Below, piece by piece: positions 13,682-58,742 of a stretch of DNA of 64,000 nt; the first letter of the stretch is position 1, and the number at the start of each line of letters is the position of its first letter. The notes under the pieces were generated by a model. The model did no database searches. It saw nothing but the letters and a program-made list of their open reading frames with translations, and was not told the DNA's origin. The position numbers and the translations under genes are program-made. This DNA comes from an uncultured Candidatus Saccharibacteria bacterium (GTDB lineage Bacteria > Patescibacteriota > Minisyncoccia > Phycocordibacterales > JACOZG01), in assembly GCA_964591715.1 (NCBI GenBank), contig CAZQDR010000003.1:269-64268 (forward strand). Direction: 5' to 3'.

Positions 13682-14698
13682 ATGGCAAAAAAAGCGCCCC
13701 GCGAAGATTTATCCGGGGCTGGTATTGAGGATACAATTCGTTCGATTGAGACCAAGTTCGGCGAGGGTTCGATTATGAAGCTGGGCGAGAAGCCCAAGGT
13801 TGACGTCGGCGCCGTCTCCACCGGCTCGGTCAGTTTAGATATGGCTTTAGGCATTGGCGGTCTCCCTCGCGGCCGCATTATTGAAATTTACGGACCCGAA
13901 TCATCCGGTAAAACGACGCTCGCCCTGCACGTCGTCGCTCAAGCCCAAAAGCTGGGTGGCGTTTGTGCTTATATTGATGCCGAGCACGCCCTAGACCCCG
14001 AGTATACGAAGAAGATCGGCGTTAAAATTGAAGACTTGCTGATCTCGCAACCAGACTACGGCGAGCAAGCTTTGGAAATCTCGGAAAGCTTAATCCGCTC
14101 TGGCAAAATTGATGTCATTGTCATTGACTCCGTTGCCGCTCTGACCCCTAAAGATGAGATCGAGGGCGACGTGGGAGCATATCATGTGGGCAAGCAGGCC
14201 CGACTCATGAGCCAAGCGCTCCGCAAAATGACCGCTATCGTTGCCAAGTCCAAAACCGTCGTGATCTTTATCAATCAGATTCGCATGCAAATCGGCGTCA
14301 TGTTTGGCAATCCGGAGACTACACCAGGTGGCAAGGCACTTAAGTTTTACGCTTCGGTCCGACTGGATATCCGCCGCATTGCTCAAATCAAGAAGGGTGA
14401 AGAAATTGTTGGTGGCCGGGTCCGAGTGAAGGTCGTGAAGAACAAGGTGGCGGCACCATTTAAGATTGGCGAGTTCGATGTTCTTTACAACGAGGGCATC
14501 TCCCCCGAAGGGGAAATTATTGCGCTTGGCGAGAAATCTGGTATTATCTCGAAGTCTGGGTCGTCCTACGCCTACGGTGAGATTAAACTCGGTCGCGGCT
14601 ATGACGCGGCTCGGACCTACTTGAAGGAGAATCCTAAACTTCAGAAAGAATTATTACAGAAGATTAAGGCCGCTTTGGCCGCCGAACAACAAGCATAG
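13682..14698 (+). CDS. recA: Recombinase RecA
   Basis: [13 protein letters not shown]-loop, the IDAEHALDP motif, and [23 protein letters not shown]. Confidence 0.95.
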
Positions 14699-23843: not shown

Positions 23844-25769
23844 TTACTTAACTACCTTCTCTTGTCCAAGTTGGAACTGGGGATCCGTATTTAAATTGGT
23901 GTCCAGGGGTCGTTTAAAGGTGGTCTCCAACGTCTGGCCCGTGGAACCATCAATGGCCGTAAAGGTCGGTTCGCTGACCAAATTAGGGATAGTGCCCACC
24001 TGGCTTAAGCTGGGCTTAAGCGCCACCTGGAAGGAAACCTGCCGCGGTGCTGTCCCAAAGCCCGTAGCGGCGCTAATCGTGCCCAGCGACCAGACTACCT
24101 GACCACCACCACCGGAAGCGGGCGTAAAAGTCAGGTTCTCATTGGCTGGGCTTTGACTGTTGGTCCAGGCCACATAAGAAGGCAAAACAGCAGTAACAAA
24201 CGCTTCGCTCAAATTATTGGAGGAGTTAAGTAGCGACCAGGTAATTGTATAAGTCGTTTCTTGATCAACCTTGGGTGGGAGCGGTCCACGATTGAGGAGT
24301 GGGCCGCTGGCATAATTAGCCTTAGCCGCCAACTGGACAACCGAATTTAGTTTAAGACTGCGCGTCAGCTTGGTCTCCACTAGCTCGGTACCACCACCAT
24401 CGGCCACGCGCTTGCCCCGCAAAGTAATCACTAAATCAATCTGGGGATTTTTAATTTGATAATTATTGGCGCTTACTAGTGAGACTGGTGAGAAAGTAAA
24501 GTCAGCCGAGCCTTCACTGCTGGGTGCCAAGGAACCTAGACCACTGTAATTCGAGCGATTCCAGCGAATTAGATTAGCCGCCGAGTCATAAAAGCCCCGA
24601 GGCGCCAGCACACTCGACTTATCCAAGGCGTCGCCCTTAAACTCAACCGTAATTTCCGTATCTGTTACCGGCGTCGCTAAATTATTGCGCCAGTCAATTT
24701 TACCCTGAACTGTTTGGCGACTCTCACCAACCGACACATTCTCACTGGAGTTGTTAATGAGAGCCCCCAAACCAACCGAGGCGCGCTCGATCGTAAGCTG
24801 CTTGGTAATGGCGCCAAAACTAACAGCAATTGCGGTGTCGGTAATCGTGCGACCACTACCAACTTCAATCCTAAAAGCTTTATCCTCAGCATCTTGACCA
24901 GTAATCACACCCTTAACGGTATAGGTAACTTTGTCTCCCGGCTTAAGCGGATCCAGCAGCCAAACATTGCGACCATAAGTGGGTGACAGGCTAGCACTGC
25001 GAAACTCGAAGCCGCTCGGATAGTTCATGACCACTAGCGGCGCCGAGATTGTTGAAGCGGCATTAGAGACGATTGTCACTTTGGCTGTCACCTCTTGATT
25101 GGCATTAACCGTCTCGGGTAAATCAAGCGTCACATCAATCGGCGAAGAACTAATTGATAAATCTAAAGTCTGACTGGTATGGAAAGTCGCGTTCGAATTT
25201 ACTAGTCGGTACTGCGCGGTAACTTTAATTGGTAGGTCGGCATCTTTTTGGCCAAACAAAACTGGTCGCAAGGTGCGCCGAACCACCTCGCCTGATGCGA
25301 TCTTGCCGATCGACTGTTTATCGTAAGTTAGCTCTCTGGTACTAGTGGCCGCGCTTTTGGTGCCGGCTGGATATTCTGCAATTAAATCTACCAACTCCAT
25401 CGCTACGGCGTTTTTGTTGGTGATAGTTACCTCAATGGCCGCCGCTTGGCCAGAGCGCACCGACAACGGCCCCGTCATGTCTACCACCACATTACCACTC
25501 GAGACAACATTCTCCCCGCGCAAGAAAACAAAAAGAGTAACACCAATCATTAGCACAAAAAAGACCGCCGCAACGAGCAGTAACTTTTTTAACCATTTAG
25601 GACTAAGGTACTTTGATGTGGCCATGTTGTTATTGGGGGCGGACCAGTCGCGAGGCAAAGTGGGCTCGCGCTCCTCTAGCGGCGAACGCCGAACTGGCGG
25701 AGCCTCATTAGTGCGACCGTGCAACTTGCGCTTTAAACGTTCAATGCTATCTTCTCCGGGATCAACCAT
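23844..25769 (-). CDS. Large membrane-anchored surface protein with repeated beta-sandwich domains
   Basis: Start trimmed to MVDPGED (ATG at 25769, 7 nt after TGgTATACT). It has one TM helix (LLLVAAVFFVLMIGVTLFVFL), then ~550 aa of beta-rich repeats. Confidence 0.55.
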   Translation of the reverse strand: MVDPGEDSIERLKRKLHGRTNEAPPVRRSPLEEREPTLPRDWSAPNNNMATSKYLSPKWLKKLLLVAAVFFVLMIGVTLFVFLRGENVVSSGNVVVDMTGPLSVRSGQAAAIEVTITNKNAVAMELVDLIAEYPAGTKSAATSTRELTYDKQSIGKIASGEVVRRTLRPVLFGQKDADLPIKVTAQYRLVNSNATFHTSQTLDLSISSSPIDVTLDLPETVNANQEVTAKVTIVSNAASTISAPLVVMNYPSGFEFRSASLSPTYGRNVWLLDPLKPGDKVTYTVKGVITGQDAEDKAFRIEVGSGRTITDTAIAVSFGAITKQLTIERASVGLGALINNSSENVSVGESRQTVQGKIDWRNNLATPVTDTEITVEFKGDALDKSSVLAPRGFYDSAANLIRWNRSNYSGLGSLAPSSEGSADFTFSPVSLVSANNYQIKNPQIDLVITLRGKRVADGGGTELVETKLTRSLKLNSVVQLAAKANYASGPLLNRGPLPPKVDQETTYTITWSLLNSSNNLSEAFVTAVLPSYVAWTNSQSPANENLTFTPASGGGGQVVWSLGTISAATGFGTAPRQVSFQVALKPSLSQVGTIPNLVSEPTFTAIDGSTGQTLETTFKRPLDTNLNTDPQFQLGQEKVVK

Positions 25770-25791
25770 GATATGCAGTATACCACAAGCT

Positions 25792-26376
25792 TTAGAGGTG
25801 ACTGTGGTGTAAGGCTTGATTAATAATTTCGAGCGCCAGCTGCTGGCGCTCGGCCGACAACTCGAGCGGCGCCATGTCCCAGTCGTTGAAAGCAAAAATG
25901 ACCTCGAGCTCCGGGCGCTCCTCTACATAACCCAAACGGCGCAAAAGCCGCGCCACCCAAATTAGCTCAAAATTGACTAGCTCCGCTTCGGTCAAAAAAG
26001 GTCGTTCCAAAAAATGGGCTCCGCTTTTAAACTCCTCAAAAAAATCGGGCTGGGCCACTTCACCGGTTACTAAGCGCAAAATCAGTTGGGCAACCCGGGC
26101 CAGGAGCTGCAGGCGCACCGCTTCGCGGTGCGCCGCCAATTCCCCCGCCTCAACATGCACCACGCGCCAGACCTCCCGGCCTCGCACCAACGAGACCTCC
26201 GGCCAACTAAATAATTGCAGATTATAACGGAGCTTAGACTTTAATTCCCGCAAACCTTGGGCGGTAGCGTTAACCAAACCGTGATCACGCGTATACAAAG
26301 TCAGCGTCCGGGTTGCTTCGCTCGCCTCTCGGACACCCAACACGACCGCTGGCGTGGTGTAAATTTGATGCGACAT
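25792..26376 (-). CDS. recO: DNA repair protein RecO (short form)
   Basis: N-terminal OB-like TPAVVLGVREASEATRTLTLYTRDHGLVNATAQGLRELKSKLR. The start overlaps the ileS stop (TAATG). Confidence 0.6.
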   Translation of the reverse strand: MSHQIYTTPAVVLGVREASEATRTLTLYTRDHGLVNATAQGLRELKSKLRYNLQLFSWPEVSLVRGREVWRVVHVEAGELAAHREAVRLQLLARVAQLILRLVTGEVAQPDFFEEFKSGAHFLERPFLTEAELVNFELIWVARLLRRLGYVEERPELEVIFAFNDWDMAPLELSAERQQLALEIINQALHHSHL

Positions 26377-29300
26377 TATTCGTAACGAAAAGCGCTCGCG
26401 CAGGTCGCGACTTTTATTTCGTGCTCATACTTCTCGGCCAAGCTCTGTTTGGCAATCGGTATAACCACTTCCGCTTGTTCTCCTGCCTTCAAGCCGCTTT
26501 CTTTACGCCAATCCTGAATTTCGCGAATCAAATCGCGCAGTTCCCCCTCCTCCTTAAGTTCAGGAGTGATAGTCAAATCAAGTTCTACCACTGCCGACAA
26601 GTTAGGATCAAAGATTACCGCTTTAACATTTACTTCGTCTTGGATAAGTTGAGCCAGTTCAGCGGAGAGCGGAGCACTTTTGGCTTTAAGTTCTTTTAGT
26701 GGTTGGCGAACTTTAATCGCGGCTTTGGCTCGCGCCTCTAAGCCACCCGAGACGAGCTGGCGCACGAGTTGCATCGCGGTAATAATTTCTTCGTCGCTCT
26801 TGTCGGCCTCGGGCCAATGCTCTAAGTGCACGCTCTCCGCGCCACCTTTCAATTTCAAATAAATTTCCTCAGCAACAAAGGGCGTAAATGGGGCCATCAA
26901 GCACGACAACACCAACAGCGTCCGGCGGAGCGTATCCATCACTGCCTGCGCCTCAGCGGGATCAGTGGGCTTAAAGCGATCGCGCGACCGGCGTAAATAC
27001 CAAGTTGATAAATCGTCCACAAATTCGTCGATGGGCCGCAAAGCCCGATCAAGCTCATAAGACTCCATCGCCGCTGTTACTAATCCAATCACTTCGTTAA
27101 GCCGGTCGTTAATCCAACGATCTAAAATATGAGTACTAGCGGCATCGCTCGGAACGTGGGCGCCGGCGTACAGTTCATAAAACGCCACCACGTTCCGCAG
27201 ACGGCCCAGCACCCGATTACTGGTCTCGCGCAAACCACGCTCCGAAAAATTAAATTCTTCAGCATGTACCGCTGGTGATGAGAGCAAGTAAAAACGCAAC
27301 GCGTCCGCGCCAAAAGTATCAATCGTGGGTTCCAGATCGGGATAATTTTTTAGACGCTTAGACATCTTTTGGCCATCCTCGGCTAAAATCAAACCATTCA
27401 CTACGACACGCTTAAAGGGGGGGCGATTAAAAAGTCCCAGCGAGAGCACCAGCAAAACATAAAACCAGCCGCGAGTTTGATCCAAACCTTCGGCAATAAA
27501 GTCCGCGGGAAAATGCTTTTCAAACTCTTCCTTGTTGGCAAACGGATAATGTAACTGGCCGTAAGGCATGGAACCGGACTCAAACCACACATCAAAAACA
27601 TCGGGTACGCGCGCCATCTCGGCACCACACTCGCAACGGAGTTTAACCTCATCAATATACGGCCGGTGAAAGTCGAGCTCGTAGGCTTGATTGTGCGGGA
27701 GAGCGACAAAGGGCAGTGGTCGCGATTCGGCGGTTTTTAAAAAGTAACGATCCTCACTCTGCGCGGCTTCGGCCTCGTGATCATTAAAGCCTTGGGCTCC
27801 CACCATCAATAACCAGCCCACCGCTTCGTGAGTGATCAGTAAAATATTTTTACCCGCATAACGAGCGTCAATCTCATACAGCGACTGGAGCGCCCGCGCC
27901 TTCACCTCATGAAAGTTTTCCCCCGCTGGTGGCGCCTTAGTAAAGCGCTCGGCTCGACCACTGAAAAAAGCGTGGAACTTAGCCACCGACCCCCCCTCCA
28001 ATTCGCCAAAGCCCACCTCGCGCAGGCGCTCATCCAAAACCACTTGATCGGCCGGTACTCCTAAAGCCTCCGCCATGAGCGCCGCCGTCTCTCGTGTTCG
28101 CAAAACTGGCGAAGTAATGATCAGATCAATTTTTTCCTTAGCCAAAGTTTTACCGGTGGCTTCTACTTGCTCACGGCCATTTTCCGTTAAATGATTGTCG
28201 CCATCGAGCGCCGAGGTAACAATGCTTTGTACGTTCGACTGGGCCTCGCCGTGACGCATGACCCAATAATTATTTTTTGGCTGCCGCTTAGCAGTGAGCT
28301 CCTCGAGTGAGCCAATCACTTCAATTTTTTTGCAGCTTTCGCAACGCCAGACCGGTAGCGGCGCCCCCCAGTAACGCGAACGCGATACTGCCCAATCGCG
28401 CGCCCCCTCCAGCCATTTACCAAAGCGACCGTCTTTAATATATTCCGGCACCCAAGTTACGCCCTCGTTTGCCTTCAAGAGTGCCTCCTTCATCGTACTT
28501 ACAGCAATAAACCAGGATGATGACGCGTAGTTTAAGAGAGGTGTATCGCAACGCCAACAATGAGGGTAGGGGTGAGTAATTTTTTCCTTCGCAAAAAAGG
28601 TGCCATGCTCCTGCAAATATTTTAAGACTGCAATGTCAGCCGAGAGACGCTCCTTCTCATCTTCACTCTTGGGTTTAACTGGCAGACCGGCAAAATCTTT
28701 GACCGCCGCTTTAAAGTGACCGCTAGTATCAACGTGCTGGATAAAAGGTAAATTTTTAGCCTGACCCAACTTTAAGTCGTCCTCGCCGAATGCCGGTGCA
28801 ATATGGACAATGCCGGTACCATCCTCGGTTGTCACAAAATCCGCGCCGTAAACCTGCCAACCGTTCTCCTTATTTTTCAGCGTCGTATCATTCTGATAAT
28901 AATCAAAAACTGGTTGATACTTTTTACCCACCAATTTTTGTCCGGTAAATGTTTCTTCAATGGTAAAATTATCGGTTAAAACTTTTGTGGCCAGCGCCTC
29001 CGCCACAATCAACTTAATTCCGCCCTTTTCGACTCGAACATAGTTCAGTTCGGGATTAACCGCCAGCGCCACATTACCTGGCAGCGTCCAAGGTGTCGTG
29101 GTCCAGGCCAACAAGTAAGTCCCCGGCTCATCAACCAGTTCAAATTTTACCGTCACCGACAAATCCGTGACATCTTTGTAACCCTGATTAACCTCAAAGT
29201 TAGCCAGCGTTGTCTCACAGCGCGGGCACAAATGCATAGACTTGTAACCTTCGTAGGCCAAGCCCTTGTCGTAGAGTTGTTTAAAAATCCACCACACCGT

Positions 29301-29771
29301 CTCGGTGTAACTGGAGTCCATCGTTTTATAATCGTTCTCCATGTCCACAAAACGGCCAATGCGGGGAATAATCCTTTTCCACTCGTCAGCATAACGGAGC
29401 ACGCTCTCTCGTGCCTTTTGGTTAAAGACGTCAATCCCCAACGCTTCAATATCCTTTTTGGTTTTTAGACCCAACTCTTTCTCGATCAGGTTCTCGATCG
29501 GCAAGCCGTGACAATCCCAACCCCAGCGACGCGCCACTCTAAAGCCGCGCATGGTTTGATAGCGTGGAATAGCGTCTTTAATCGAGGTCGGCAGCAAGTG
29601 ACCAAAGTGAGGCAAACCGGTCGCAAAGGGCGGCCCATCATAAAAAACGTACTCGCCTTTGGGCGCATCTTTAGCCAGGGACTTGGCGAAAATTTGGTGA
29701 TCTTGCCAGAACTTAAGGATCTCTTCCTCGCGTTTGGCAACATCGGATTTTTGGGGCAGAGCTTCGGCCAT
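26376..29771 (-). CDS. ileS: Isoleucyl-tRNA synthetase with an inserted histidine-phosphatase domain
   Basis: PPFATGLPHFGHLL (HIGH region), the editing-domain WTTTPWTLPGN, and KMSKRLKN. The ~195-aa insert carries RHGE...SPVLRTRETA...THE motifs; see findings. Confidence 0.9.
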   Translation of the reverse strand: MAEALPQKSDVAKREEEILKFWQDHQIFAKSLAKDAPKGEYVFYDGPPFATGLPHFGHLLPTSIKDAIPRYQTMRGFRVARRWGWDCHGLPIENLIEKELGLKTKKDIEALGIDVFNQKARESVLRYADEWKRIIPRIGRFVDMENDYKTMDSSYTETVWWIFKQLYDKGLAYEGYKSMHLCPRCETTLANFEVNQGYKDVTDLSVTVKFELVDEPGTYLLAWTTTPWTLPGNVALAVNPELNYVRVEKGGIKLIVAEALATKVLTDNFTIEETFTGQKLVGKKYQPVFDYYQNDTTLKNKENGWQVYGADFVTTEDGTGIVHIAPAFGEDDLKLGQAKNLPFIQHVDTSGHFKAAVKDFAGLPVKPKSEDEKERLSADIAVLKYLQEHGTFFAKEKITHPYPHCWRCDTPLLNYASSSWFIAVSTMKEALLKANEGVTWVPEYIKDGRFGKWLEGARDWAVSRSRYWGAPLPVWRCESCKKIEVIGSLEELTAKRQPKNNYWVMRHGEAQSNVQSIVTSALDGDNHLTENGREQVEATGKTLAKEKIDLIITSPVLRTRETAALMAEALGVPADQVVLDERLREVGFGELEGGSVAKFHAFFSGRAERFTKAPPAGENFHEVKARALQSLYEIDARYAGKNILLITHEAVGWLLMVGAQGFNDHEAEAAQSEDRYFLKTAESRPLPFVALPHNQAYELDFHRPYIDEVKLRCECGAEMARVPDVFDVWFESGSMPYGQLHYPFANKEEFEKHFPADFIAEGLDQTRGWFYVLLVLSLGLFNRPPFKRVVVNGLILAEDGQKMSKRLKNYPDLEPTIDTFGADALRFYLLSSPAVHAEEFNFSERGLRETSNRVLGRLRNVVAFYELYAGAHVPSDAASTHILDRWINDRLNEVIGLVTAAMESYELDRALRPIDEFVDDLSTWYLRRSRDRFKPTDPAEAQAVMDTLRRTLLVLSCLMAPFTPFVAEEIYLKLKGGAESVHLEHWPEADKSDEEIITAMQLVRQLVSGGLEARAKAAIKVRQPLKELKAKSAPLSAELAQLIQDEVNVKAVIFDPNLSAVVELDLTITPELKEEGELRDLIREIQDWRKESGLKAGEQAEVVIPIAKQSLAEKYEHEIKVATCASAFRYE

Positions 29772-30012: not shown

Positions 30013-31611
30013 TCACATCTGGTCCGGAGTCTGTATCCCCAACAGCCCGAGGCCATTTTTGAGCACTTGGGCGACGGCCGCCGTCAGTGCCAAGCGATAG
30101 TTCTCGTTCTCACTGCCAATAATCCGATTTTGGGCATAGTAGGCGTTAAAAGCCGAGGCCAGCTCCAGCAAGTAAGTCACAATATAGTTTGGCGCCAATT
30201 CTTGGGCCGCAAATGCCGCCAGATCCGGGAAACGAATTAATAATTTCTCTACCGCTGTCGCGTCCTCCGCCACTAACTCGACTGCCAAATTCGGCGCCTT
30301 AGCAAGAATAGACTGCGCGCGCACGGCAGTGTACTGCAGGTAAGGACCGGAGTCGCCTAAAAAGGAGAGCGATTTTTCTAAATCAAAAATAATATCGCGA
30401 CCAGGCGCCTGTTTCAAAATCGAATATTTAATTGCGGCCACCGCAATCGGCTCAGTCACATCCTCCCGCGCCTTCATCGCCTCGGCTAATAAAAATTCCG
30501 CCGTAATGACATCGCCAGTCCGGGAAGACATTTTTCCGGTTGGCAAACGAAGCATCCCGTGAGCCACATGTTTAGTTTTAGCGGCCAAGTCAGGAAAAAC
30601 CAACGACATCGCCTTTAACAACACTTTAAAATAGGCTTGGATTTCGTTGCCGGTCACCACGATCGACTGATCATACGGGAACTCGTCAAATTTAATTTTA
30701 GCTAGCCCCAACTCCTTCGCTTCATAAGTCGGCAACCCGTCCGAGTTAATAAAAACTCGGGTATGTAAGCCCTCCTCTTCGGCTCCCTTAAAGACTACGG
30801 CGCCATCGCTCTTTTCAAACACTTTACCTAAGTTATCCTCCACCACCTGCTTACCAAACGGTCCCGCCGCACTCTCAAAGAAATAATAATCAAATTTAGT
30901 CCCCAGCTTCTCGTAAATGGTTTCGAAATATTCTAAACTGACCCGCCGACCCTCGTCATAAATTTTATTAATTGCCTCGTCGCTCTTGTCATAAATCTTT
31001 TTGTTGATTTCTCTGATCGCCGCCTCGTCACCCTTGGTGGCGCCGTAGGCGTAGGCCTCGCCGAGCGTTGCGGCCGAGAGTTGGGCGGGCTTAAGTTCAA
31101 GTAACCCCCAAACCGCCCTGGCGACGTGTAACCCGACATCACCCTGATAACACGCCCGTTTAACCTCCGCGCCACTAAAAGCCAAGAGGCGGGACAGTGA
31201 CTCGCCGATCACATTTGGCATCAGGTGACCAATGTGAAATTCTTTAAATGGATTAGGGTCGGTATACTCGACAATCACTTTTTGCCCGGCCAGCTTTTGA
31301 CCACGACCATAATTCTCCTTCTCGCTTAAAACTTTTTTAATTTCCGCTGCAAAAACGGAGGTGGCTAAATAAAAATTAATAAAACCTGGACCGGCCACCT
31401 CCACCTTGGCCAACCACTCGGGTTTATCAGCTAAAATTTTTTCCTTAATTTTCTCCGCCACGGCTTTGGGATTCTCTCCCGCAGTTTTAGCGGCAACCAT
31501 GGCGACGTTAGAAGCAAAATCTCCGTGCGCCAAATCAGCCGGATATTCGACGGAAAATTTAACGGGCGCCTCCAGCACCCCCTCAATTAGTTTTTTGACC
31601 ACCTCTTTCAT
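30013..31611 (-). CDS. argS: Arginyl-tRNA synthetase
   Basis: EYTDPNPFKEFHIGHL (HIGH region) and the typical class I Arg C-terminal DALR domain. The start was placed at the third ATG because the -10 element overlaps the first two. Confidence 0.9.
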   Translation of the reverse strand: MKEVVKKLIEGVLEAPVKFSVEYPADLAHGDFASNVAMVAAKTAGENPKAVAEKIKEKILADKPEWLAKVEVAGPGFINFYLATSVFAAEIKKVLSEKENYGRGQKLAGQKVIVEYTDPNPFKEFHIGHLMPNVIGESLSRLLAFSGAEVKRACYQGDVGLHVARAVWGLLELKPAQLSAATLGEAYAYGATKGDEAAIREINKKIYDKSDEAINKIYDEGRRVSLEYFETIYEKLGTKFDYYFFESAAGPFGKQVVEDNLGKVFEKSDGAVVFKGAEEEGLHTRVFINSDGLPTYEAKELGLAKIKFDEFPYDQSIVVTGNEIQAYFKVLLKAMSLVFPDLAAKTKHVAHGMLRLPTGKMSSRTGDVITAEFLLAEAMKAREDVTEPIAVAAIKYSILKQAPGRDIIFDLEKSLSFLGDSGPYLQYTAVRAQSILAKAPNLAVELVAEDATAVEKLLIRFPDLAAFAAQELAPNYIVTYLLELASAFNAYYAQNRIIGSENENYRLALTAAVAQVLKNGLGLLGIQTPDQM

Positions 31612-31618
31612 TGCCATC

Positions 31619-31654
31619 ATCCTAGCATTTTTCGGACAAGAAAAAAGCCCCGCG
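31619..31654 (-). repeat. Copy 2 of the terminator-tail/promoter cassette upstream of argS
   Basis: ATCCTAGCATTTTTCGGACAAGAAAAAAGCCCCGCG. Confidence 0.8.
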
Positions 31655-42928: not shown

Positions 42929-43768
42929 TCAGATTAAATACGAGAGCACCACCGCCAATAACACCGAAGCGCCAGCCGTCGAGAGATTGCGCCAGCGGAA
43001 CCAGCCCTGGGGTGAGCGACTCTCGACCTCGTCCGTCTTTAAAAACTGGCGAATAATATGCTCCAAATCATGGGGACTCTCCACCGTTTCGAGAGTGGTC
43101 CCCCGCGCCACCGAGATCGTGCGCTTCTCCTCCGAGAGCACGATCGCCAGAGCGTCGGTGCGCTCGGTAATCCCGAGCGCCGCGCGGTGGCGCGTACCCG
43201 AATTGGCAAAAAATTTAAAATTGTCCGCCAGCGGCAAATGCACGCCAAAGGATTTAATCACCCCCTGCTCAATAATAATGGCGCCATCGTGACCTGGTGA
43301 ACTCGGGTCAAAAATACTTAAAATCAGCGGCACCGAAGGCGTCCCACCCAAACTAAAGCCACCCTGGGTCAGTGTTTCGAGCGGATAGTCTCCTGCTAAA
43401 ACAATCAGGGCGCCTATTTTGCGCTTCGCCATTTCTCGACACGCCTCCACGATTATCGCGGGGATTTCCGCCACCGCATTAGCGCCAGACCCCAGCCAAC
43501 GCCGGCGCGTGGGAAAGGTCAGCCAGTCAAAGAAGCGACGAATTTCCTTTTGGAACACCACCACAAACACCACCACAAAGGAGGTCAGGAGGGGTTGAAA
43601 TAATTCGCGAGTCAAAACGAGATCTAGCTTATAGGCCACAAAGTTAATCGTCGTTAGAACGGCGATCATACTTAACACCACAAAGGACCGCGTTTGGCGG
43701 ATGAAGACCAGGACTAAATAGATTAAAAAGGCGACTAGTAAAACATCAAGCAGATTTTTCAGTTCCAT
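42929..43768 (-). CDS. cdaA: Diadenylate cyclase CdaA (DisA_N domain)
   Basis: Three N-terminal TM helices, GALIVLAGD, DGAIIIE, and GTRHRAALGITERTDALAIVLSEE. Confidence 0.85.
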   Translation of the reverse strand: MELKNLLDVLLVAFLIYLVLVFIRQTRSFVVLSMIAVLTTINFVAYKLDLVLTRELFQPLLTSFVVVFVVVFQKEIRRFFDWLTFPTRRRWLGSGANAVAEIPAIIVEACREMAKRKIGALIVLAGDYPLETLTQGGFSLGGTPSVPLILSIFDPSSPGHDGAIIIEQGVIKSFGVHLPLADNFKFFANSGTRHRAALGITERTDALAIVLSEEKRTISVARGTTLETVESPHDLEHIIRQFLKTDEVESRSPQGWFRWRNLSTAGASVLLAVVLSYLI

Positions 43769-45233: not shown

Positions 45234-46247
45234 TTAGTCAACCAAAACCGGGTAACTAGCCTTAAGCTCAGCAATAATTTTACGCTTTGCCTCCTCAAGC
45301 GGTAGGTGCAAATAGGCTCCAATTGCCGCCCGGTGACCGCCACCACCAATAGCTACAGCAAACTTAGTTAAATCAAAAACTTTGGCGTCACGAGTCCGGG
45401 CGCTTAATTTAATCACCCCTGGCTCCCATTCAAAAATCGTGAGCCCAATGTCCCAACCCGAGACTGATTTTAAAATATTAGCGATGGTCACCCCCTTGGC
45501 ATCATTCTCTTTAATCATTGCTCCCTTGAGTCGCTCATGCGGTAAGACCGAGAGCGCAACGCGACCACCGCAACAGACCTCGATTGAGCTTAAGGCTAAC
45601 GCCTGGAAGTAAATTGATCCCGGCGTATTATTATTTTCTAGTTTAAAAATCAGACTGGAATAATCTGGAGCGAGCGCCGCCAGACGCGAGGCTACCGCCA
45701 AGGTCCGACTAGTCGTCGCTTGATACTTAAAACCGCCAGTGTCGGTATAAATGCCGAGCAAAAAACACAAAGCGCTTTCCCGATCAAGTGGCCAGACCAG
45801 CGTCTCGGCTAATTCGGTCAGCATTTCGGCCGTCGCAGCATAGGTACTATCCACCCAGTTAAGCGTGGCGAATTGCGTTGTCGTCAAATGATGATCAATC
45901 AAAATCGTCGTCATGGTGTCGGGAAAGCTAACTAGTCCAAGCGTCGAGATCCGATCCAAACCCCCGCTGTCGAGCACAATAAATAAATCGTAATCGGCCG
46001 GATTAAGCTCGAGATAATTTTTAGCCACCACCAGTTCGCCACCAGGCAAGAATTGGGCAAAATCCGGAATCGGTGAATCCCCCTTTATCACCGTCACCTC
46101 CTTACCTAGATTGCGCAATACGTGCGCCAATCCCAAGGCACTGCCATAACTGTCCGGATCGGGACTGGGGTGACAGTGGAGCAAAATATGTCTTGAGCGC
46201 TCAACCGCCGTTTTGATTTCTTGGGCTTTAACCGCCAATTCATTCAT
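45234..46247 (-). CDS. DHH/DHHA1 phosphoesterase (NrnA-like)
   Basis: HCHPSPDPDSYGSALGL, VLDSGG, IDHH, and GGGHRAAIG. The start at MNELAV is uncertain. Confidence 0.75.
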   Translation of the reverse strand: MNELAVKAQEIKTAVERSRHILLHCHPSPDPDSYGSALGLAHVLRNLGKEVTVIKGDSPIPDFAQFLPGGELVVAKNYLELNPADYDLFIVLDSGGLDRISTLGLVSFPDTMTTILIDHHLTTTQFATLNWVDSTYAATAEMLTELAETLVWPLDRESALCFLLGIYTDTGGFKYQATTSRTLAVASRLAALAPDYSSLIFKLENNNTPGSIYFQALALSSIEVCCGGRVALSVLPHERLKGAMIKENDAKGVTIANILKSVSGWDIGLTIFEWEPGVIKLSARTRDAKVFDLTKFAVAIGGGGHRAAIGAYLHLPLEEAKRKIIAELKASYPVLVD

Positions 46248-46445
46248 GCCTCCTATAGTAGCATCATTAGTCCCCATTATTAAGCCAAGAAATAAACCCA
46301 TGTCTATCCGCAATTATTTTTTAAGTTTAGTGGATGCTATTCTGGCTCGCCTCGACAGTCAAATTGAAGGGCTAAATCATTCACATTTTGCTCATTAATC
46401 CAAGGCACACTTAAAACTATTATTAATTAATTTTGATTAAATTTT

Positions 46446-46700
46446 ATGGCCACCATCATCAACACCCCAGCGAGAGCGAGCAGCGAGGAGAACGCCTGGG
46501 GAATTGTGCTCGCGGTAGTAGTTTTGGTCTTACTGGCGTTCTTCTTCTTTTCGTATTTGCTCCCAACGATGCGGGCTAATGCCCCAGCCGCTCCCGCCGC
46601 TACTCCTAGCACCCCGAGCGCCAGCATTAATGTTGAGCTACCAACGCCCGTTCAACCTCAGAGTCCAACTCCGGCTCCAACCAACGGCACAGTTCAATAA
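46446..46700 (+). CDS. Possible small membrane protein with a Pro-rich tail
   Basis: TM helix WGIVLAVVVLVLLAFFFFSYLL followed by a PAAPAATPSTPS tail. It competes with an antisense ORF. Confidence 0.35.
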   Translation: MATIINTPARASSEENAWGIVLAVVVLVLLAFFFFSYLLPTMRANAPAAPAATPSTPSASINVELPTPVQPQSPTPAPTNGTVQ

Positions 46701-47926
46701 ACTTCGCCCCAAAACGGCAGTGGTAATCGCCGATTCATCGACCCGCCTCTGGCGGGTCGATGTTGTTTAGCCACCAAACTCGAGGCTAAAAATACCGCCG
46801 CGGTGCCGCGATCACAGTGGAGGCGATCAACTATTTGATAGAGTTCCCGCGCTTGGTCACCACGGCAACTGTCGCCAAAAAGGTCCAATTGCGCTGGCGA
46901 TCGATCTCTAAAATGACTCAGCGTTACCCCGGTACTTCGATAACGGCAACCAGAGCGATACCAACGCAAACAGTAGCGAGAGGCCAGCGTCACCAACTCT
47001 CCTGGTTCAACAATTGGTCGCTCAAGCCTAAGCTCAAAAGAGTGGTAACGAAAGTCTTGGGTTTTAAAAAAGAAAAACACATGACATGGCTCCAACTCGT
47101 AGGCCCGGGCCTCTCGGCAAGCCGCTTCAATGTTTTTAGACAAATGAGACAAGAGAAAAGAAAGTTCCGTGGTGGGTGGAGTAAAAGTGCCGGTCCGACT
47201 AATCGAGCCATAGCTCTCCCGACCAACTGTTCCCACTAACTTAACCGCCTTGCCGCCCAACTCCAACCACAACTCATAGTAGGGTTGGGCAAAATGCTCC
47301 CGCACCCACCACTCGGGCTTAGCGGCAAATTGAGCGGCCGTCTTTAACCCCAGAGCCGCCAGCGCCCGAGTGGTCCGCGGTCCAATACCCCAAACTTTAC
47401 CCAAGGCTAATTGCTGCAAGATTTCCAGACGATTGGTCTCATCCATTATCACTAAGCCCGAGGGCTTACGCCACTTCGAGGCCACTTTTGCCAAAACTTT
47501 AGTTTCCGCCAGGCCCAAAGAGAAGGTGGTATTCAATTCCCGCTCTAGAGCATTTTTAATTTCCGCCACTAAGGCTCGGTAGTCCAAGCGCCGCGGCAAC
47601 TGCCAACCAGTAAGATCAGCAAAACACTCATCAATACTGTACTCCTCAACCACAGGGGTATAGCGACGAACAATCGCATACATCCGCCGAGCGTAACTTC
47701 GATAGAGCTCGTAGTCAGAGGGCAAAATAACTACTTCCGGATAACGGCGTCGGATTTGGAACACTGGCATCCCCCGCGTCACACCTAAAGCCTTGGCTTC
47801 ATAACTAAGAGCCGCAGCTATCCCCCGATCTTGGCCGACCACCACTGGTTTACCGCGCAAAGACGGGTCACGAGAAATTTCACACCCAGCGAAAAAGGCA
47901 TCACCATCAACATGCAAAATAGGCAT
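46694..47926 (-). CDS. Y-family DNA polymerase (DinB/UmuC-like)
   Basis: ILHVDGDAFFAGCE, YSIDECFADLTG, and the HhH region VWGIGPRT. Confidence 0.85.
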   Translation of the reverse strand: MPILHVDGDAFFAGCEISRDPSLRGKPVVVGQDRGIAAALSYEAKALGVTRGMPVFQIRRRYPEVVILPSDYELYRSYARRMYAIVRRYTPVVEEYSIDECFADLTGWQLPRRLDYRALVAEIKNALERELNTTFSLGLAETKVLAKVASKWRKPSGLVIMDETNRLEILQQLALGKVWGIGPRTTRALAALGLKTAAQFAAKPEWWVREHFAQPYYELWLELGGKAVKLVGTVGRESYGSISRTGTFTPPTTELSFLLSHLSKNIEAACREARAYELEPCHVFFFFKTQDFRYHSFELRLERPIVEPGELVTLASRYCLRWYRSGCRYRSTGVTLSHFRDRSPAQLDLFGDSCRGDQARELYQIVDRLHCDRGTAAVFLASSLVAKQHRPARGGSMNRRLPLPFWGEVY

Positions 47927-47929
47927 CGC

Positions 47930-48499
47930 TTAACGATACTTACGTACCACTGCCGTTACAACAGCGGCAATTTTTAAATCATGCTCCGGATAAATCGGTT
48001 TGTAGTTTTTATTGGCGGGTTCTAGGTAAGCGCGAATCCCTTGGCGGCGGTAATACTTCATTGTCCAGCCGCCATCAATCTCGGCAATCACAATGTCACC
48101 CTCATGAGGAGTCCGGCCGCGTTCCACCAACACCATGTCACCCTCCTGAATGCCAGCATCAATCATGGAGTCGCCTTTTACCTCAAGCATGTAAGTCGCC
48201 TCTTTATTATTGATTAGATAATCATCTAAGCTTACTGTATCCAACACGTGCTCCTCAGCGATGGTGGGGAAACCAGCCTCCACCAAACCCAAAACTGGCA
48301 CCTCGCCAAACAACTTCAGCGGAATCAGTCGGCCGGTGCTATCTTTAGACAACATCCCCTCCTCGATTAATTTGTGGACCAGTTTAAAAGCGGCGTTTTT
48401 AGATTTGAAACCGCAGAGCGTCATGATCTCCTGATAGCTCGGCATGCGCTTGTGGCGTTGATAGAAGCCAATGATTTTATCTTTATAGCGATTCATCAT
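47930..48499 (-). CDS. lexA: LexA-type repressor (wHTH plus S24 peptidase)
   Basis: N-terminal wHTH PSYQEIMTLCGFKSKNAAFKLVHKL, a cleavage-site-like VEAGFP, the catalytic GDSM, and the Lys in TMKYY. Confidence 0.8.
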   Translation of the reverse strand: MMNRYKDKIIGFYQRHKRMPSYQEIMTLCGFKSKNAAFKLVHKLIEEGMLSKDSTGRLIPLKLFGEVPVLGLVEAGFPTIAEEHVLDTVSLDDYLINNKEATYMLEVKGDSMIDAGIQEGDMVLVERGRTPHEGDIVIAEIDGGWTMKYYRRQGIRAYLEPANKNYKPIYPEHDLKIAAVVTAVVRKYR

Positions 48500-51135: not shown

Positions 51136-54100
51136 CTAGAGATGCTGCTTTTTGTCTTTCATTAGCTCCAAAAAGAAAGCTGGCACAATATATAGAGTGA
51201 GGAAGGAAGACAAAGTGAGGCCAAAGATAACCGCACCGCCAAGTGAGCGCCATAGCTCATTGGAAAGAGTGACTGGCAAAATACCAAAAATTGTACTAAT
51301 CGAAGTGATAAAAATCGCCTCCAACCGCGACTTACCAGCATCCGCAACCGCCTCTTGAAAAGGAATGCCACTTCGAATATTTAGATTAATTTTATCAACG
51401 AGAATAATCGCGTTCTTCACCACAATTCCGAAGAGGGCCAAAATACCGATTAGCCCAGGGAAACTGAGGGGGACGTCAAAGAGAGCCATCCCAATAAAGA
51501 CGCCAATTAGCGCTAGTGGAATCGGCACCAAAACAATCAAAGCTTTGCGGAAAGAATTAAACTGGATAATCAGTGTTGCCACAATCAAAACGAGCGCAAT
51601 AATCATGGCCCGGAGCACTGAGGTGACCGACTCGGTATTTTGCTCATTCTCACCACCATAGGTAAGAGTGTAGCCGGCCGGCAAACTATAGCCGGCAATT
51701 CTTTTTTGGAAATCCGACAAGATGGCCTGGCCGTTTGTTGAGGAATCGGCGCCAGCGGAAATAATAATGGTGCGCTTCTGATCAATGCGAGTGATCACAT
51801 CCACGGCCGGCTTCAATTCAACCTTGGCCACATCCTTCAAAAACACCGGCTGCTTGCGTAGATTAAGAATTTGCATGTTTTGAATAGCGGCCAAATCAGG
51901 AATCGCGGTTTGATCGAAAGTAGCAATCAACTGAACCTCCTTATCCCCTTCTACAATCTTAGTCAGCTCAACTCCCGAAACCGCAGTGCGGAGGGTTGAA
52001 CCAACAATCAGAGCGTTTAAATTATTTTGCTCCATAGCAGCCGAATCAAGCGTAAAGGTATACTCGGGAACAGACTCCTTCTGAGAAACATTTACGTTAA
52101 TGACGCCAGGCACTGAGACTAAGATTGGTTTGAGATCGCGGATGATTCCCGCTAGACGATCAAGGTCATCACCAGCCAAGTGCGCCTCGAAAGAAGCCCC
52201 CGAGGGCGGGCCACCCGCCAAAGTGGAAACGTTGACTGTTAAACCGGTAGTTGTTGCCAAGTCGACCCGCAAGCGATCAGAGAATTCGTAAGATTTTTCG
52301 GAGCGCTCCCCTTTCTCTTTAAGAATAATGGAAATACCCGCCAGGTTGGCGCCACTCCCAGAACCAGAAAAGGAACCTGAGTTGGGACTGGATTGTCCCA
52401 CCACGGTTGAAAAATTAGCAATGTCTTCGTAGTGGCGCAATTGCTGTTCCACCTTCTGAACCCGAGAGTCCGTTTCGGCCAGAGTAGTACCAACCGGCGC
52501 TCTTAGGTCAACGAAAACATAGTCACTATCCTGAATCGGAAAGAAGACGCTCTTAACAAAACCCAACGCCACCAGCGCCACCGCCACAAAAAACAAAACA
52601 ACGACGACGCCAATAACGCGACGACGTTTCTTTTTGTCGATAATATAGTATCGAAATGAGCGCTCATATAGCGGCAAGAAACGCTGAAAGTTAATAATGC
52701 CGTGCATTACTTTGCCAGCAAAGTTTTCGTGATCGCGGCTTCCCTGCGCGGCCAATTTTGCTTTGATTAGATCATCACTGTCCCACTCGCGCTCCATCTG
52801 CTCTTTATTGACCGACAGCTTAGACTTGCCCCCTTTCTCGTACCAGCGGATTAAATAGAGGGAAATCGCCACCAAAACAATGCCCACAATAGTAGCAATA
52901 ATCCCACCGACATAAAAAAGAATTGCTGCGATCGTCAAAAGCCCAGCTTCGAGTAAGAATAAGAAACGCCGCGTCAAGCGAAGGCGCTCAAGCACCGCGG
53001 CAAGCGGGTGGTTAATCATGAGAGCGATCAAGAGCGATGCAATCAGCGTAATCGACACGGTAACTGGAATTGATTTTAAGTATTGGCCAATGATGCCCGT
53101 GGCAAACAAGAGCGGCAAGAAAGCCCAGACCGTCGCCAGAGTCGTAGTTAACAGCACCCCCTTAAAATCGTTGAGCACCAAAAGCACCGCTTCTTCGGGC
53201 GTAAACTTACCGGTATTTAAATATTGCTTTGTCGCTGACACCACCACGATCGCATCGTCAACCAACAAACCCAACGCTAAAATAAGAGAAAACAGGGAGA
53301 GAAAGTTAAGCGAGATGCCGAGCAATAAAAGTGAGCCGAAGGTGACAAAGAAGACCAGCGGAATCGCCAGCACGGCCACAAACGCCTCCTTCAAACCAAC
53401 AATCAAAAAAAGAATGATGGATACCAGCAGAATCGTGAGCAAAAAATCATCAGAGAGCTGAACAAAATCCTCCCGCACTTGTTTAGCCATATCCGTACCA
53501 ACCACGTCATAAGTAATTCCCGGGGGTAGACTGGCCACCATTTTATCGACCGTCGCTTTAGCCTCGTCAACCGTGTCTAATACTGAGGCCCCCTGACGCT
53601 TAACCAGCGAGAGAGTAACTGCATTCTTCGGTGCCGCCCCCGCAATCGACAGACGCGAATAAACAGTTTTTTTATGCGCCTTTTCTGTAACTTCGGCCAC
53701 ATCTTTAAGCAAAATCACTCCCCCGCTTTCAGGATGAGCAATCGCCAGTGAGGCAATTTGCTCAACTGTCTCTAAAGGCAAGTCCGTTCGAATTGGCACA
53801 ATAAACGAACCCGTTTCGAGATTACCAGCGGGGATCGCTGTGTTGGCTGCCAAGATAGCATTGTTTGCCTCGGCCGCTGTGACCCCGTAAAACAAAAGTT
53901 GGTCGGGACGATAGGCTACCTCGATTTCCTTCTCATCACCACCGGAAATTTCAATCTGACGCACGCCAGGAATCTTCTCAAGTTCTGTTTGAATATCTTC
54001 CGCATATTTGCGAAGCGTGAAGGCATCATATGGACCAGTGACCGAAATTGACCAAACCGGCATATCATCAAGCGAGACTTCAGTCACGATTGGATCTTTA

Positions 54101-54543
54101 GCATCAGTGGAAATGCTAGACTTGGCCGCATCAACCGAGTTTCTTAACAGCTGAATCGAGCTTTGAATGTCAGCGCTGGCGTTAAACTCAACAACAATGG
54201 AAGACAAGGAGTTATAAGAATTAGAGGTAATTTTATTAAGCCCCCTCAGTCCCGACAACTCAGTCTCAATTTTTTTGGTCACAAATTGCTCCACGTCCGA
54301 CGGCGAAGCGCCCGGAAAAACAGTGGTTACCACTGCGATGGGAATTTTTACCTCTGGATTCGATTCTTGGGGCAAGCTAAAAAAAGCGTAGAGACCCCAG
54401 ACGCTGATTAATAAAATCATTAAAACAACTACCCGAAAATTGGTGACAAAAAAGTTAAACCACGTCTGACGCAGCTCGGGCCGAAAAGTTAAGCGCTCAA
54501 GATATTTGCTGTCTGAAGAGTGTTCGTGGTTGAAGTCCGCCAT
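51136..54543 (-). CDS. RND-superfamily efflux transporter (AcrB/AcrD/AcrF family)
   Basis: 12-TM architecture with two large loops, and a typical N-terminus ...RPELRQTWFNFFVTNFRVVVLMILLISVWGLYAF. Confidence 0.88.
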   Translation of the reverse strand: MADFNHEHSSDSKYLERLTFRPELRQTWFNFFVTNFRVVVLMILLISVWGLYAFFSLPQESNPEVKIPIAVVTTVFPGASPSDVEQFVTKKIETELSGLRGLNKITSNSYNSLSSIVVEFNASADIQSSIQLLRNSVDAAKSSISTDAKDPIVTEVSLDDMPVWSISVTGPYDAFTLRKYAEDIQTELEKIPGVRQIEISGGDEKEIEVAYRPDQLLFYGVTAAEANNAILAANTAIPAGNLETGSFIVPIRTDLPLETVEQIASLAIAHPESGGVILLKDVAEVTEKAHKKTVYSRLSIAGAAPKNAVTLSLVKRQGASVLDTVDEAKATVDKMVASLPPGITYDVVGTDMAKQVREDFVQLSDDFLLTILLVSIILFLIVGLKEAFVAVLAIPLVFFVTFGSLLLLGISLNFLSLFSLILALGLLVDDAIVVVSATKQYLNTGKFTPEEAVLLVLNDFKGVLLTTTLATVWAFLPLLFATGIIGQYLKSIPVTVSITLIASLLIALMINHPLAAVLERLRLTRRFLFLLEAGLLTIAAILFYVGGIIATIVGIVLVAISLYLIRWYEKGGKSKLSVNKEQMEREWDSDDLIKAKLAAQGSRDHENFAGKVMHGIINFQRFLPLYERSFRYYIIDKKKRRRVIGVVVVLFFVAVALVALGFVKSVFFPIQDSDYVFVDLRAPVGTTLAETDSRVQKVEQQLRHYEDIANFSTVVGQSSPNSGSFSGSGSGANLAGISIILKEKGERSEKSYEFSDRLRVDLATTTGLTVNVSTLAGGPPSGASFEAHLAGDDLDRLAGIIRDLKPILVSVPGVINVNVSQKESVPEYTFTLDSAAMEQNNLNALIVGSTLRTAVSGVELTKIVEGDKEVQLIATFDQTAIPDLAAIQNMQILNLRKQPVFLKDVAKVELKPAVDVITRIDQKRTIIISAGADSSTNGQAILSDFQKRIAGYSLPAGYTLTYGGENEQNTESVTSVLRAMIIALVLIVATLIIQFNSFRKALIVLVPIPLALIGVFIGMALFDVPLSFPGLIGILALFGIVVKNAIILVDKINLNIRSGIPFQEAVADAGKSRLEAIFITSISTIFGILPVTLSNELWRSLGGAVIFGLTLSSFLTLYIVPAFFLELMKDKKQHL

Positions 54544-54549
54544 AACTAT

Positions 54550-56073: not shown

Positions 56074-56100
56074 AAATCGGATATTACACCAGAACTCGTT

Positions 56101-57204: not shown

Positions 57205-57305
57205 TGATTAGTTGCATAGTCGCGAGGAAGAGGCTATTTCCCACACTGTACACCTTATTGATTAGTATTCAATGAAGCTAGCGAGTGACCTTGTGGTAAA
57301 CCCCC

Positions 57306-57692
57306 TTAATTAAACTTGATTTCAAACGGGTACATACCCATGCCACAGGAACCTTTAAGTGTGCCAAGCTGACCACTGCCAATATCAATATCCGTTGACC
57401 CCGTTTGAGGCAGTAGCTTTGAAATATTCATACTGGCGATCCTAACCGATGACGAACAATCAAACGTATTTTGAGTGTTAAATCGAAGAATGGTCGGGAT
57501 CCCGGCTTTAGCCACACTCTTGCGAGGCTGAAAACCGCCCCGAGCCGTAATCTCTATTATTTGTTTCCCATCAACAATGGTGACATTATTGCCGTTCTCG
57601 GTTAACTCCGCGCCGTCTTTATTACCGGCAAACAGGAAAGCTCCTCCAATGAGAGCCAGGGCGATAAATATGGCGATAACGGTTGCTTTCAT
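57306..57692 (-). CDS. Membrane-anchored cupredoxin-like protein
   Basis: Start re-picked at MKATVIAIF (ATG at 57692). The C-terminal ...GSCGMGMYPFEIKF resembles the Cupredoxin_1 family, and the gene sits in a copper operon. Confidence 0.5.
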   Translation of the reverse strand: MKATVIAIFIALALIGGAFLFAGNKDGAELTENGNNVTIVDGKQIIEITARGGFQPRKSVAKAGIPTILRFNTQNTFDCSSSVRIASMNISKLLPQTGSTDIDIGSGQLGTLKGSCGMGMYPFEIKFN

Positions 57693-57705
57693 AAATATTA
57701 TTATT

Positions 57706-58737: not shown

Positions 58738-58742
58738 AGTAA

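Follow-up and report, generated by a model that had tools for sequence, protein, structure and literature searches.

What is a complete phosphatase doing inside an aminoacyl-tRNA synthetase (aaRS)? The question is posed by the isoleucyl-tRNA synthetase (IleRS) gene of an uncultured Candidatus Saccharibacteria bacterium, which occupies 26376..29771 on the reverse strand of the 64,000-nucleotide stretch analysed here (hereafter the window), taken from a contig of a metagenome-assembled genome. The gene is a single continuous open reading frame (ORF) encoding a type 2 IleRS of 1131 amino acids, and nested within it, at residues 497-697 (27681..28283; this and all other features of the gene lie on the reverse strand), is a histidine-phosphatase (His_Phos_1) domain that equals an entire standalone protein of ~195-200 amino acids. 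Judged from its conserved residues, the product looks bifunctional, with both active sites intact, and its phosphatase is recurrently linked, either physically or through gene order, to tRNA enzymes that form adenylates.

A preliminary description of this DNA had proposed an apparently intact histidine phosphatase at 27687-28283, coordinates that correspond exactly to residues 497-695; the start stands, and the end of the domain is now placed at about residue 697. The motifs that it quoted (C477/C480, C713/C715, R506-H507 and H648) lie at the residues it gave, and its view that the domain is intact agrees with profile, catalytic residues and fold alike. Pfam His_Phos_1 (PF00300) matches residues 503-667 in the context of the whole protein (E=3.9e-34, 118.5 bits, cutoff 21.7), and a profile search with the insert alone, the check originally suggested, returned E=1.3e-35 (123.3 bits against the same cutoff). 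Conservation was measured across the 120 best homologs of the window protein, drawn from NCBI, JGI, ENA and Logan assemblies. The catalytic RHG motif with its nucleophilic histidine, R506-H507-G508 (28248..28256), is conserved in 100, 100 and 99% of these sequences, while the second phosphate-binding arginine, R558 (28098..28100), the acid/base glutamate expected for the family, E585 (28017..28019), and the second catalytic histidine, H648 (27828..27830), are each conserved in 100%. Among the surrounding residues N513 is 97% conserved, and S554, G532, G589, E618 and R626 are invariant. A broader survey of 172 domain copies was based on an exhaustive HMMER search, in which the 199-residue insert was compared with 1.84 billion cluster representatives and gave 982 matches at E<=1e-10. 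The full R-H-R-E-H set was present in 109 of the 114 complete IleRS-embedded copies, the other five differing only by a change of E585 to D, and the position was E or D in all copies from this search. With all catalytic residues conserved, the phosphatase is apparently active.

The predicted structure points the same way. In an AlphaFold2 model of the full protein, built on the 120-sequence alignment and likewise suggested at the outset, the mean predicted local distance difference test score (pLDDT) is 93.6 and the predicted template modelling score 0.88, and the insert and its junctions are folded with confidence, with a pLDDT of ~95 at the C-terminal junction. (A single-sequence AlphaFold2 model of a standalone relative, P0204, reached a pLDDT of 51 and was discarded.) The closest solved protein by sequence is PhoE (E=5e-14), and in fold comparisons the nearest structures were small-molecule phosphatases of ~200 amino acids, over 178-184 aligned residues. 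Taken together, the profile score, the catalytic core and the predicted alpha/beta fold identify the insert as a complete branch-1 histidine phosphatase of the small PhoE, phosphoserine-phosphatase or CobC structural type. Given these nearest structures and a surface that is not consistently basic, the domain would be expected to prefer small molecules.

Several named families were tried as more specific identities and rejected. The canonical dPGM model pgm_1 (TIGR01258) scored 22.4 bits against a cutoff of 81.7, over the N-terminal 90 residues only; the archaeal-type dPGM model dPGM_arch (NF038349), still the best NCBIfam match of the insert, scored 90.1 bits against a cutoff of 225; and the alpha-ribazole phosphatase CobC (TIGR03162) scored 74.6 against 162.9. 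The phosphoserine phosphatase (PSP) score was likewise below the NCBIfam cutoff, and the insert did not qualify as a SixA protein (TIGR00249), a family with a minimal fold of ~155 amino acids without a cap.

SixA and PGAM5, both protein phosphatases, are also among the structural neighbours, and toxin kinases target class I aaRSs, which together raise the idea of a protein phosphatase that undoes inhibitory phosphorylation of the synthetase, much as the attack of a HipA-type kinase on class I synthetases would be undone, or of another translation factor. We regard this as very improbable: SixA and PGAM5 are the weaker neighbours, with 137-158 aligned residues and lower Z scores, the closest relatives being small-molecule enzymes; no kinase was seen in the conserved neighbourhood of the window and the compared loci; and the standalone form, the tandem arrays and the TsaC fusion described below would be left unexplained.

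The position of the insert within the synthetase is equally well defined. It lies, as originally described, between the CxxC and CxC zinc ligands of the so-called zinc knuckle, which can now be named as the CP3 subdomain of IleRS, a zinc-binding element in the Thermus thermophilus enzyme (PMC7191050). The first ligand pair, C477-x-x-C480 (28332..28343), is 97% conserved and aligns with the CEGC of Priestia megaterium IleRS2 (P. megaterium; structure 8c8u) and with a C-x-C in IleRSs that lack the insert; the second, C713-x-C715 (27627..27635), is also 97% conserved and aligns with the second cysteine pair of both. Four cysteines in two pairs flanking a short hairpin define CP3, and by this pattern the window protein is predicted to bind zinc. 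Query residues 12-492 and 698-1107 align to 11-474 and 485-905 of 8c8u, so that ~205 residues in the window IleRS replace ~10 residues there, and insert-less IleRSs from Patescibacteria have a short knuckle of the form C-x-C...(~36 aa)...C-x-x-C. Both spacings fit the statement in the preliminary description that the pairs are normally only a few tens of residues apart. Because the topology of CP3 differs in each solved IleRS (PMC7191050), this can be considered a variable and permissive site.

Just before the knuckle lies the CP2-CP3 linker, A457-RDWAVSRSRYWG-469 (28365..28403), which shares its motif with the yeast linker 453-ARDWNVSRNRYWG-465, a segment that lines the pocket holding the tRNA 3' end and reveromycin A in yeast IleRS (PMC7955072). 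Its residues W460, S463, R464, R466, W468 and G469 are invariant, and it ends 8 residues before C477. With a motif shared with yeast at this short distance, the base of CP3 is therefore predicted to adjoin the CCA pocket; the alignments place the phosphatase at the tip of the CP3 knuckle and the base of the knuckle beside the pocket for the tRNA 3' end. The return from phosphatase to CP3 is marked by a junction motif, F688...P692-H693-N694..Y697-E698-L699-D700 (27672..27710), conserved at 75-99% within the nested family (P692-H693-N694 94-99%; F688, E698 and D700 at least 90%; L699 83%; Y697 75%) and present neither in standalone phosphatases nor in insert-less IleRSs. Together with the confidently modelled junctions, this motif suggests that the phosphatase is docked in a fixed geometry and not loosely tethered.

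The host enzyme retains the features expected of a working synthetase. Translation of 26376..29771 showed the frame to be unbroken across the insert, in keeping with the initial reading of one gene with a nested domain rather than two genes, and base composition across the insert is unremarkable. The NCBIfam model TIGR00392 (ileS) scores 891.9 bits, above its equivalog cutoff of 621.4, in two stretches that flank the insert, and NCBIfam assigns the enzyme to the type 2, MupA/MupB-like kind. The Pfam tRNA-synt_1 match is similarly split around the insert and is followed by Anticodon_1 and DUF5915. At the synthetic site both class I signatures are present: HIGH, as H55-F-G-H58 (29598..29609; H55 and G57 100%, H58 97% conserved), and KMSKS, as K802-M-S-K-R806 (27354..27368; K802 and K805 100% conserved). 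The CP1 editing-site residues T224-T226, W228, G329 and D332 are 100% conserved, with the editing motifs TTTPWT and GEDD retained along with WFESGS. On these signatures the window protein is the organism's housekeeping IleRS, its synthetic and editing sites predicted to be intact; from orthology and synteny alone we infer that it aminoacylates tRNA-Ile. NF040702, a model for IleRSs with a GNAT domain, scored 313.4 bits against a cutoff of 1999, and the protein is not a member of that family.

Comparison with related genomes, which the preliminary description had asked about, revealed that the insert is found across a large part of the Patescibacteria. PF00300 was present together with IleRS domains in 120/120 of the best homologs (54-70% identity, 1112-1231 aa), those with names belonging to Patescibacteria, Paceibacterota, or Yonath-, Vogel-, Niyogi- or Zambryskibacteria. 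Among the best 150 of the 982 matches from the exhaustive search, 100 had IleRS N- and/or C-terminal halves attached; the remaining 50, which matched through the insert only, set an upper bound for true standalone genes, because some of them turned out to be fragments, or nested copies broken by a frameshift (P0193 in locus L013 is an example). A word-indexed search with the insert alone recovered 4 proteins, the insert being too divergent for that method, and a scan of GTDB species with the single protein found the nested arrangement in five loci, a number that an alignment query would extend. From these surveys the nested arrangement is fixed across a large Parcubacteria/Paceibacteria clade and shared by hundreds of related bacteria. 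Staskawiczbacteria-type Parcubacteria form an unfused clade, with PF00300 in 0/120 of the best homologs of their IleRS.

This distribution bears directly on whether the architecture is an artefact of chimeric assembly, or the domain a catalytically inert structural spacer. More than 200 proteins from independent NCBI, JGI, ENA and Logan assemblies share the architecture, which excludes a chimera, and with conserved junctions, an invariant catalytic set and a fold predicted with high confidence, either version of this explanation is barely credible.

Two further observations concern naming. Two of the GTDB species genomes with a nested IleRS (L002 and L003) were labelled 'Candidatus Saccharibacteria' by their submitters, other named relatives being Parcubacteria/Paceibacteria; either these labels are loose or the feature extends further than that group. 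In NCBI, insert-less orthologs are called 'isoleucine--tRNA ligase', and nested ones 'class I tRNA ligase family protein' or 'hypothetical protein'. Automatic naming seems to fail on proteins with the insertion, and such genomes could look as if they had no IleRS.

Gene order shows how else the two enzymes are combined. In the window, arginyl-tRNA synthetase (ArgRS) lies directly upstream of IleRS (30013..31620, reverse strand; Pfam Arg_tRNA_synt_N, tRNA-synt_1d and DALR_1) and RecO, which served as a synteny anchor, directly downstream (25792..26376, reverse strand; Pfam RecO_N). Across the compared loci the conserved order is ArgRS, a variable element, RecO, a DUF7619/CLIPPER surface protein, a class II aaRS, an M16 peptidase and an AI-2E transporter; ArgRS is placed as in the window in L001-L005, L014-L017 and L019, and RecO follows IleRS or an ArgRS-phosphatase fusion in L001, L006, L007, L014, L017 and L019. 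Four states were found for the element between ArgRS and RecO. In the unfused state (L014/L015/L016, L012, L019 and L007) ArgRS is followed by a separate phosphatase gene of 195-200 amino acids, whose stop adjoins or overlaps the start of an insert-less IleRS of 963-1018 amino acids. The window and L001-L005 represent the nested state and lack a separate phosphatase gene, and the nested insert matches the whole standalone phosphatase from end to end. In a third state, represented by L006 and seen on two contigs, the phosphatase is fused to the C-terminus of ArgRS (P0239; L006:6001-8070) with RecO directly next; since IleRS is missing from this otherwise conserved locus, it must be encoded elsewhere. 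Finally, L017 has no phosphatase gene at this place: ArgRS adjoins an insert-less IleRS directly.

Several other features of these loci were noted. In L007, a diversity-generating retroelement (L007:313-4853), consisting of a bAvd accessory protein, a reverse transcriptase and a 1015-residue putative target with a faint PG_binding_1 match, lies directly upstream of the unfused phosphatase-IleRS pair, in the position held elsewhere by ArgRS. In insert-less lineages IleRS and RecO are separated by a small conserved ORF of 100-142 aa (L014:5650-5952, L007:8498-8926, L017:7898-8203 and L019:8060-8431), and the two of these that were compared with Pfam gave no match; the window has no such ORF, the stop codon of IleRS overlapping the start of RecO at 26376. 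A large predicted surface protein (window 23844-25895, reverse strand) is DUF11/A2M-like here and DUF7619/CLIPPER-like in relatives, and is conserved directly downstream of RecO in L007, L014, L017, L019 and L006, the loci where this region was read.

We consider it more likely that the adjacent gene became nested than the reverse, although neighbour-joining trees, built on a phosphatase-domain alignment of ~170 columns, do not settle the direction. The nested form probably arose from the adjacent-gene form by local rearrangement, for instance by duplication of the phosphatase-ileS pair followed by two in-frame deletions. In the same trees the ArgRS-fused copy pairs with P0184, an unfused phosphatase with ArgRS upstream, in 131/200 bootstraps, which fits a fusion by read-through.

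The same evidence gives weight to a rival explanation, namely that an independent housekeeping phosphatase, with a substrate of its own and no link to aminoacylation, merged with IleRS through gene order, its sole benefit being co-expression or the compaction of a reduced genome. Its gene would by chance have been located between argS and ileS, and either local rearrangement or read-through would have joined it to these neighbours. Candidates would include a sugar-phosphate or phosphoglycerate phosphatase/mutase, a phosphoserine phosphatase or a nucleotidase. The unfused state is a normal separate gene in sister lineages, adjacency accounts for both the IleRS and the ArgRS partners, and the L017 locus does without a phosphatase altogether. 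Moreover, the nearest structures are metabolic small-molecule phosphatases, the best NCBIfam match is the archaeal-type dPGM model (90 bits), and the insert diverges faster than the synthetase core, with a mean identity of 42% as against 62-71%. A separate phosphoglycerate mutase was not seen within the 64-kb window, which covers only a fraction of the genome. We take this explanation seriously, while judging it on balance not to be the right one. The domain is far under the dPGM, CobC and PSP equivalog cutoffs, and nesting within an essential enzyme is far less likely as a neutral event than an end-to-end fusion. A merger through gene order also leaves unexplained the new conserved junction motif, as well as a series of further arrangements in which the phosphatase occurs in several copies, at a second insertion site and with four different tRNA-linked, adenylate-forming partners, ValRS and TsaC included.

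These variants were found among the 150 closest relatives of the insert. Some IleRSs carry two or three tandem phosphatase copies in CP3 (P0194, P0250, P0214 and P0257). Others have a second insertion site (P0155 and P0198), which follows the helix ending at window residue 869 and precedes the anticodon-binding domain; in these proteins (1419 aa) it corresponds to window residues 864-881, about 27129-27182, a loop that connects the anticodon-binding domain to the final helix of the catalytic/stem-contact region. A ValRS (P0207; L009/L010:366-3851) has four phosphatase copies, of which three occupy the site equivalent to CP3 and one the start of CP2. Its catalytic set is intact in the three complete copies, and the fourth is truncated; since the ORF ends inside this fourth copy on a short contig of low coverage (3.9 kb, ~2x, in two samples), the completeness of P0207 is uncertain. 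On a single 3.7-kb contig, a Sua5/YrdC/TsaC protein is fused to the phosphatase (P0236; L020:977-2140), which there occupies the place of the SUA5 domain of long Sua5 proteins; Sua5/YrdC/TsaC proteins are t6A threonylcarbamoyl-AMP synthases, and the neighbouring genes encode a HAD hydrolase and a PD-(D/E)XK-like protein. Standalone proteins with two phosphatase domains also occur. The catalytic set is kept in all complete fused or extra copies, and the partners, IleRS, ValRS, ArgRS and TsaC, are all tRNA-linked enzymes that convert ATP to an acyl-AMP and pyrophosphate (PPi).

The extra copies have a character of their own, in that P0194_d1, P0198_d2, P0250_d2, P0214_d2, P0257_d2 and P0267_d1/d2 carry Asn at the position of window T529. 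These 'type 2' copies form a separate clade in 59/200 bootstraps, which is weak; instead of being recent duplicates, they may belong to a second type of paralog whose specificity differs.

What unites the partner set is the chemistry of adenylate formation, and the reading that we favour, to which we would give a probability of roughly 0.5, is that the phosphatase acts in cis with the tRNA enzymes that carry out this reaction. As an active phosphohydrolase working alongside the conversion of ATP to acyl-AMP and PPi, it would remove a species carrying phosphate that, if left, would slow charging or block it, hydrolysis proceeding through a phospho-His507 intermediate with E585 as the acid. As our first choice of substrate we tentatively propose a small molecule that all four partners have in common, PPi or else a nucleotide phosphate formed as a by-product, which fits the partner set, the multi-copy arrays, the capped PhoE-like fold and the surface that is not consistently basic.

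As a special case of the phosphatase acting in cis, the substrate could instead be the tRNA itself. Toxins and antiphage systems pyrophosphorylate the tRNA 3'-CCA end, an established mechanism that blocks aminoacylation (bioRxiv 10.1101/2021.04.30.441581; PMC11559606), and a built-in repair activity would strip a 2'/3'-phosphate, or a 3'-pyrophosphate of the toxSAS type, from the CCA end before the same enzyme charges it. The acceptor end is bound by IleRS, ValRS and ArgRS alike, and CP3 begins only 8 residues past the linker that lines the CCA pocket. TsaC, by comparison, is not an acceptor-end enzyme, arrays of 2-4 active copies are better suited to turnover of a diffusible substrate, and the fold is full-size and PhoE-like rather than the open, minimal type of SixA, with a surface lacking a consistent basic character; a literature search on histidine phosphatases at RNA ends also gave nothing relevant. 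A 2'/3'-(pyro)phosphate on the acceptor end therefore seems to us an unlikely substrate. It is, if anything, slightly less likely that the domain is a synthetase-embedded repair or antitoxin phosphatase that acts just ahead of charging on tRNA damaged by, for instance, toxSAS/CapRel-type attack, and that its recruitment to IleRS, ValRS and ArgRS reflects an arms race over tRNA ends that these episymbiotic bacteria are engaged in.

A number of points weigh against a role in cis of any kind. The ArgRS and IleRS fusions could have come about trivially, and possibly neutrally, from the adjacency of argS, the phosphatase gene and ileS, and conservation of the catalytic residues would be expected even of a phosphatase acting independently. 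IleRS does not need the phosphatase, since the close relative L017 has an insert-less enzyme with none between it and ArgRS. The ValRS and TsaC fusions, which extend the partner set, rest on two contigs and one contig, respectively, all short and of low coverage. The domain is under every NCBIfam equivalog cutoff (dPGM, CobC, PSP and SixA), and for this reason no specific substrate can be transferred to it. The phosphatase tree is poorly resolved, the unfused copies forming one clan in 3/100 bootstraps. Lastly, we know of no branch-1 histidine phosphatase that hydrolyses PPi or RNA-end phosphates.

Elsewhere in the 64-kb window, in which there were no tRNA genes and no Rfam matches at the gathering threshold, three other groups of genes drew attention. 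At 42929-43768 and 45234-46313 (both reverse strand) a c-di-AMP cyclase (DAC domain and N-terminal region of CdaA) has a DHH-family protein nearby that may act as the matching phosphodiesterase or be an NrnA-type enzyme, a family II pyrophosphatase being a further possibility. At 46694-48499 (reverse strand) a LexA-like S24 peptidase adjoins a translesion polymerase of the DinB type (IMS), a minimal SOS-type pair, and RecA is encoded at 13682-14698 (forward strand). A cluster at 51136-60986 (reverse strand) comprises an RND-type transporter (AcrB-like, 1135 aa), an HlyD-like adaptor, a PAS histidine kinase, a DsbD_2/HMA protein and a copper-type P-type ATPase, and looks like a metal or efflux island, unusual for such a small genome.

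The preliminary description knew of no aaRS with this insertion, and we found none either: neither a full-text literature search for histidine phosphatases within or beside an aaRS nor the curated domain catalogue AARS Online, where no histidine-phosphatase domain is mentioned, yielded a description. The architecture is visible in public databases through precomputed Pfam matches and has apparently gone unremarked. Synthetases with accessory catalytic domains are already known; as far as we could find, a phosphatase nested in this position appears undescribed. The aaRSs are among the best-catalogued enzymes, and their accessory domains (editing, GST, WHEP and EMAP) have repeatedly revealed new biology. 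Here, a second and apparently active centre of a different chemical class, within a Rossmann-fold insertion, is predicted to lie beside the tRNA 3'-end pocket of an essential synthetase, a feature fixed throughout one large branch of the Candidate Phyla Radiation. The separate gene, the nested form, the ArgRS fusion, the multi-copy ValRS and IleRS and the TsaC fusion make up a rare natural 'Rosetta stone' with built-in controls, a comparative series suggesting that ATP-dependent tRNA enzymes are coupled to a phosphate-removal step not recognised so far. In practical terms, pipelines that assign one function per protein would miss the embedded phosphatase, so that metabolic reconstructions may be affected.

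How does this arrangement compare with known systems? The closest class of host enzyme is the type 2 bacterial IleRS, which is eukaryote-like and MupA/MupB-like; examples are P. megaterium IleRS2 (8c8u) and T. thermophilus IleRS (1ile), and here roughly 10 residues at the CP3 tip are replaced by a complete second enzyme of ~200 residues. On the phosphatase side, the counterparts are small branch-1 enzymes, PhoE (1h2e), Hydrogenobacter phosphoserine phosphatase 1 (4ij5), the glucosyl-3-phosphoglycerate phosphatase 6s2q and CobC (6e4b), with which the insert shares only 22-28% identity; PhoE-type phosphatases are free-standing, in contrast to the window domain, nested in a tRNA enzyme, and its relatives, adjacent to such enzymes. 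A His_Phos_1 domain is likewise joined to a nucleic-acid enzyme in the RNase H/acid phosphatase of the Rv2228c type (NF005567), which ranks second among the NCBIfam matches of the insert (87 bits, cutoff 326, residues 6-152 on model positions 180-326), but that fusion with RNase H is end-to-end, not nested. The NF040702 family ('ileS_w_GNAT') is also an IleRS with an extra enzymatic domain, a different one and in a different lineage, and its GNAT domain indicates that IleRS tolerates enzymatic additions. The small alarmone hydrolases that act as antitoxins by taking the 3'-pyrophosphate off toxSAS-modified tRNA would be alike in function only, in making the CCA end chargeable again, and only if the phosphatase does repair tRNA ends, since they are HD domains with a fold unrelated to that of a histidine phosphatase. 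A further parallel is the CP1 editing domain of IleRS, ValRS and LeuRS, which is likewise hydrolytic, nested in the Rossmann fold and active in cis on the product of the synthetic site. CP1, however, is an ancient and universal ester hydrolase for mischarged tRNA, whereas the insert described here is restricted to one lineage, sits in CP3 and is predicted to be a phosphohydrolase.

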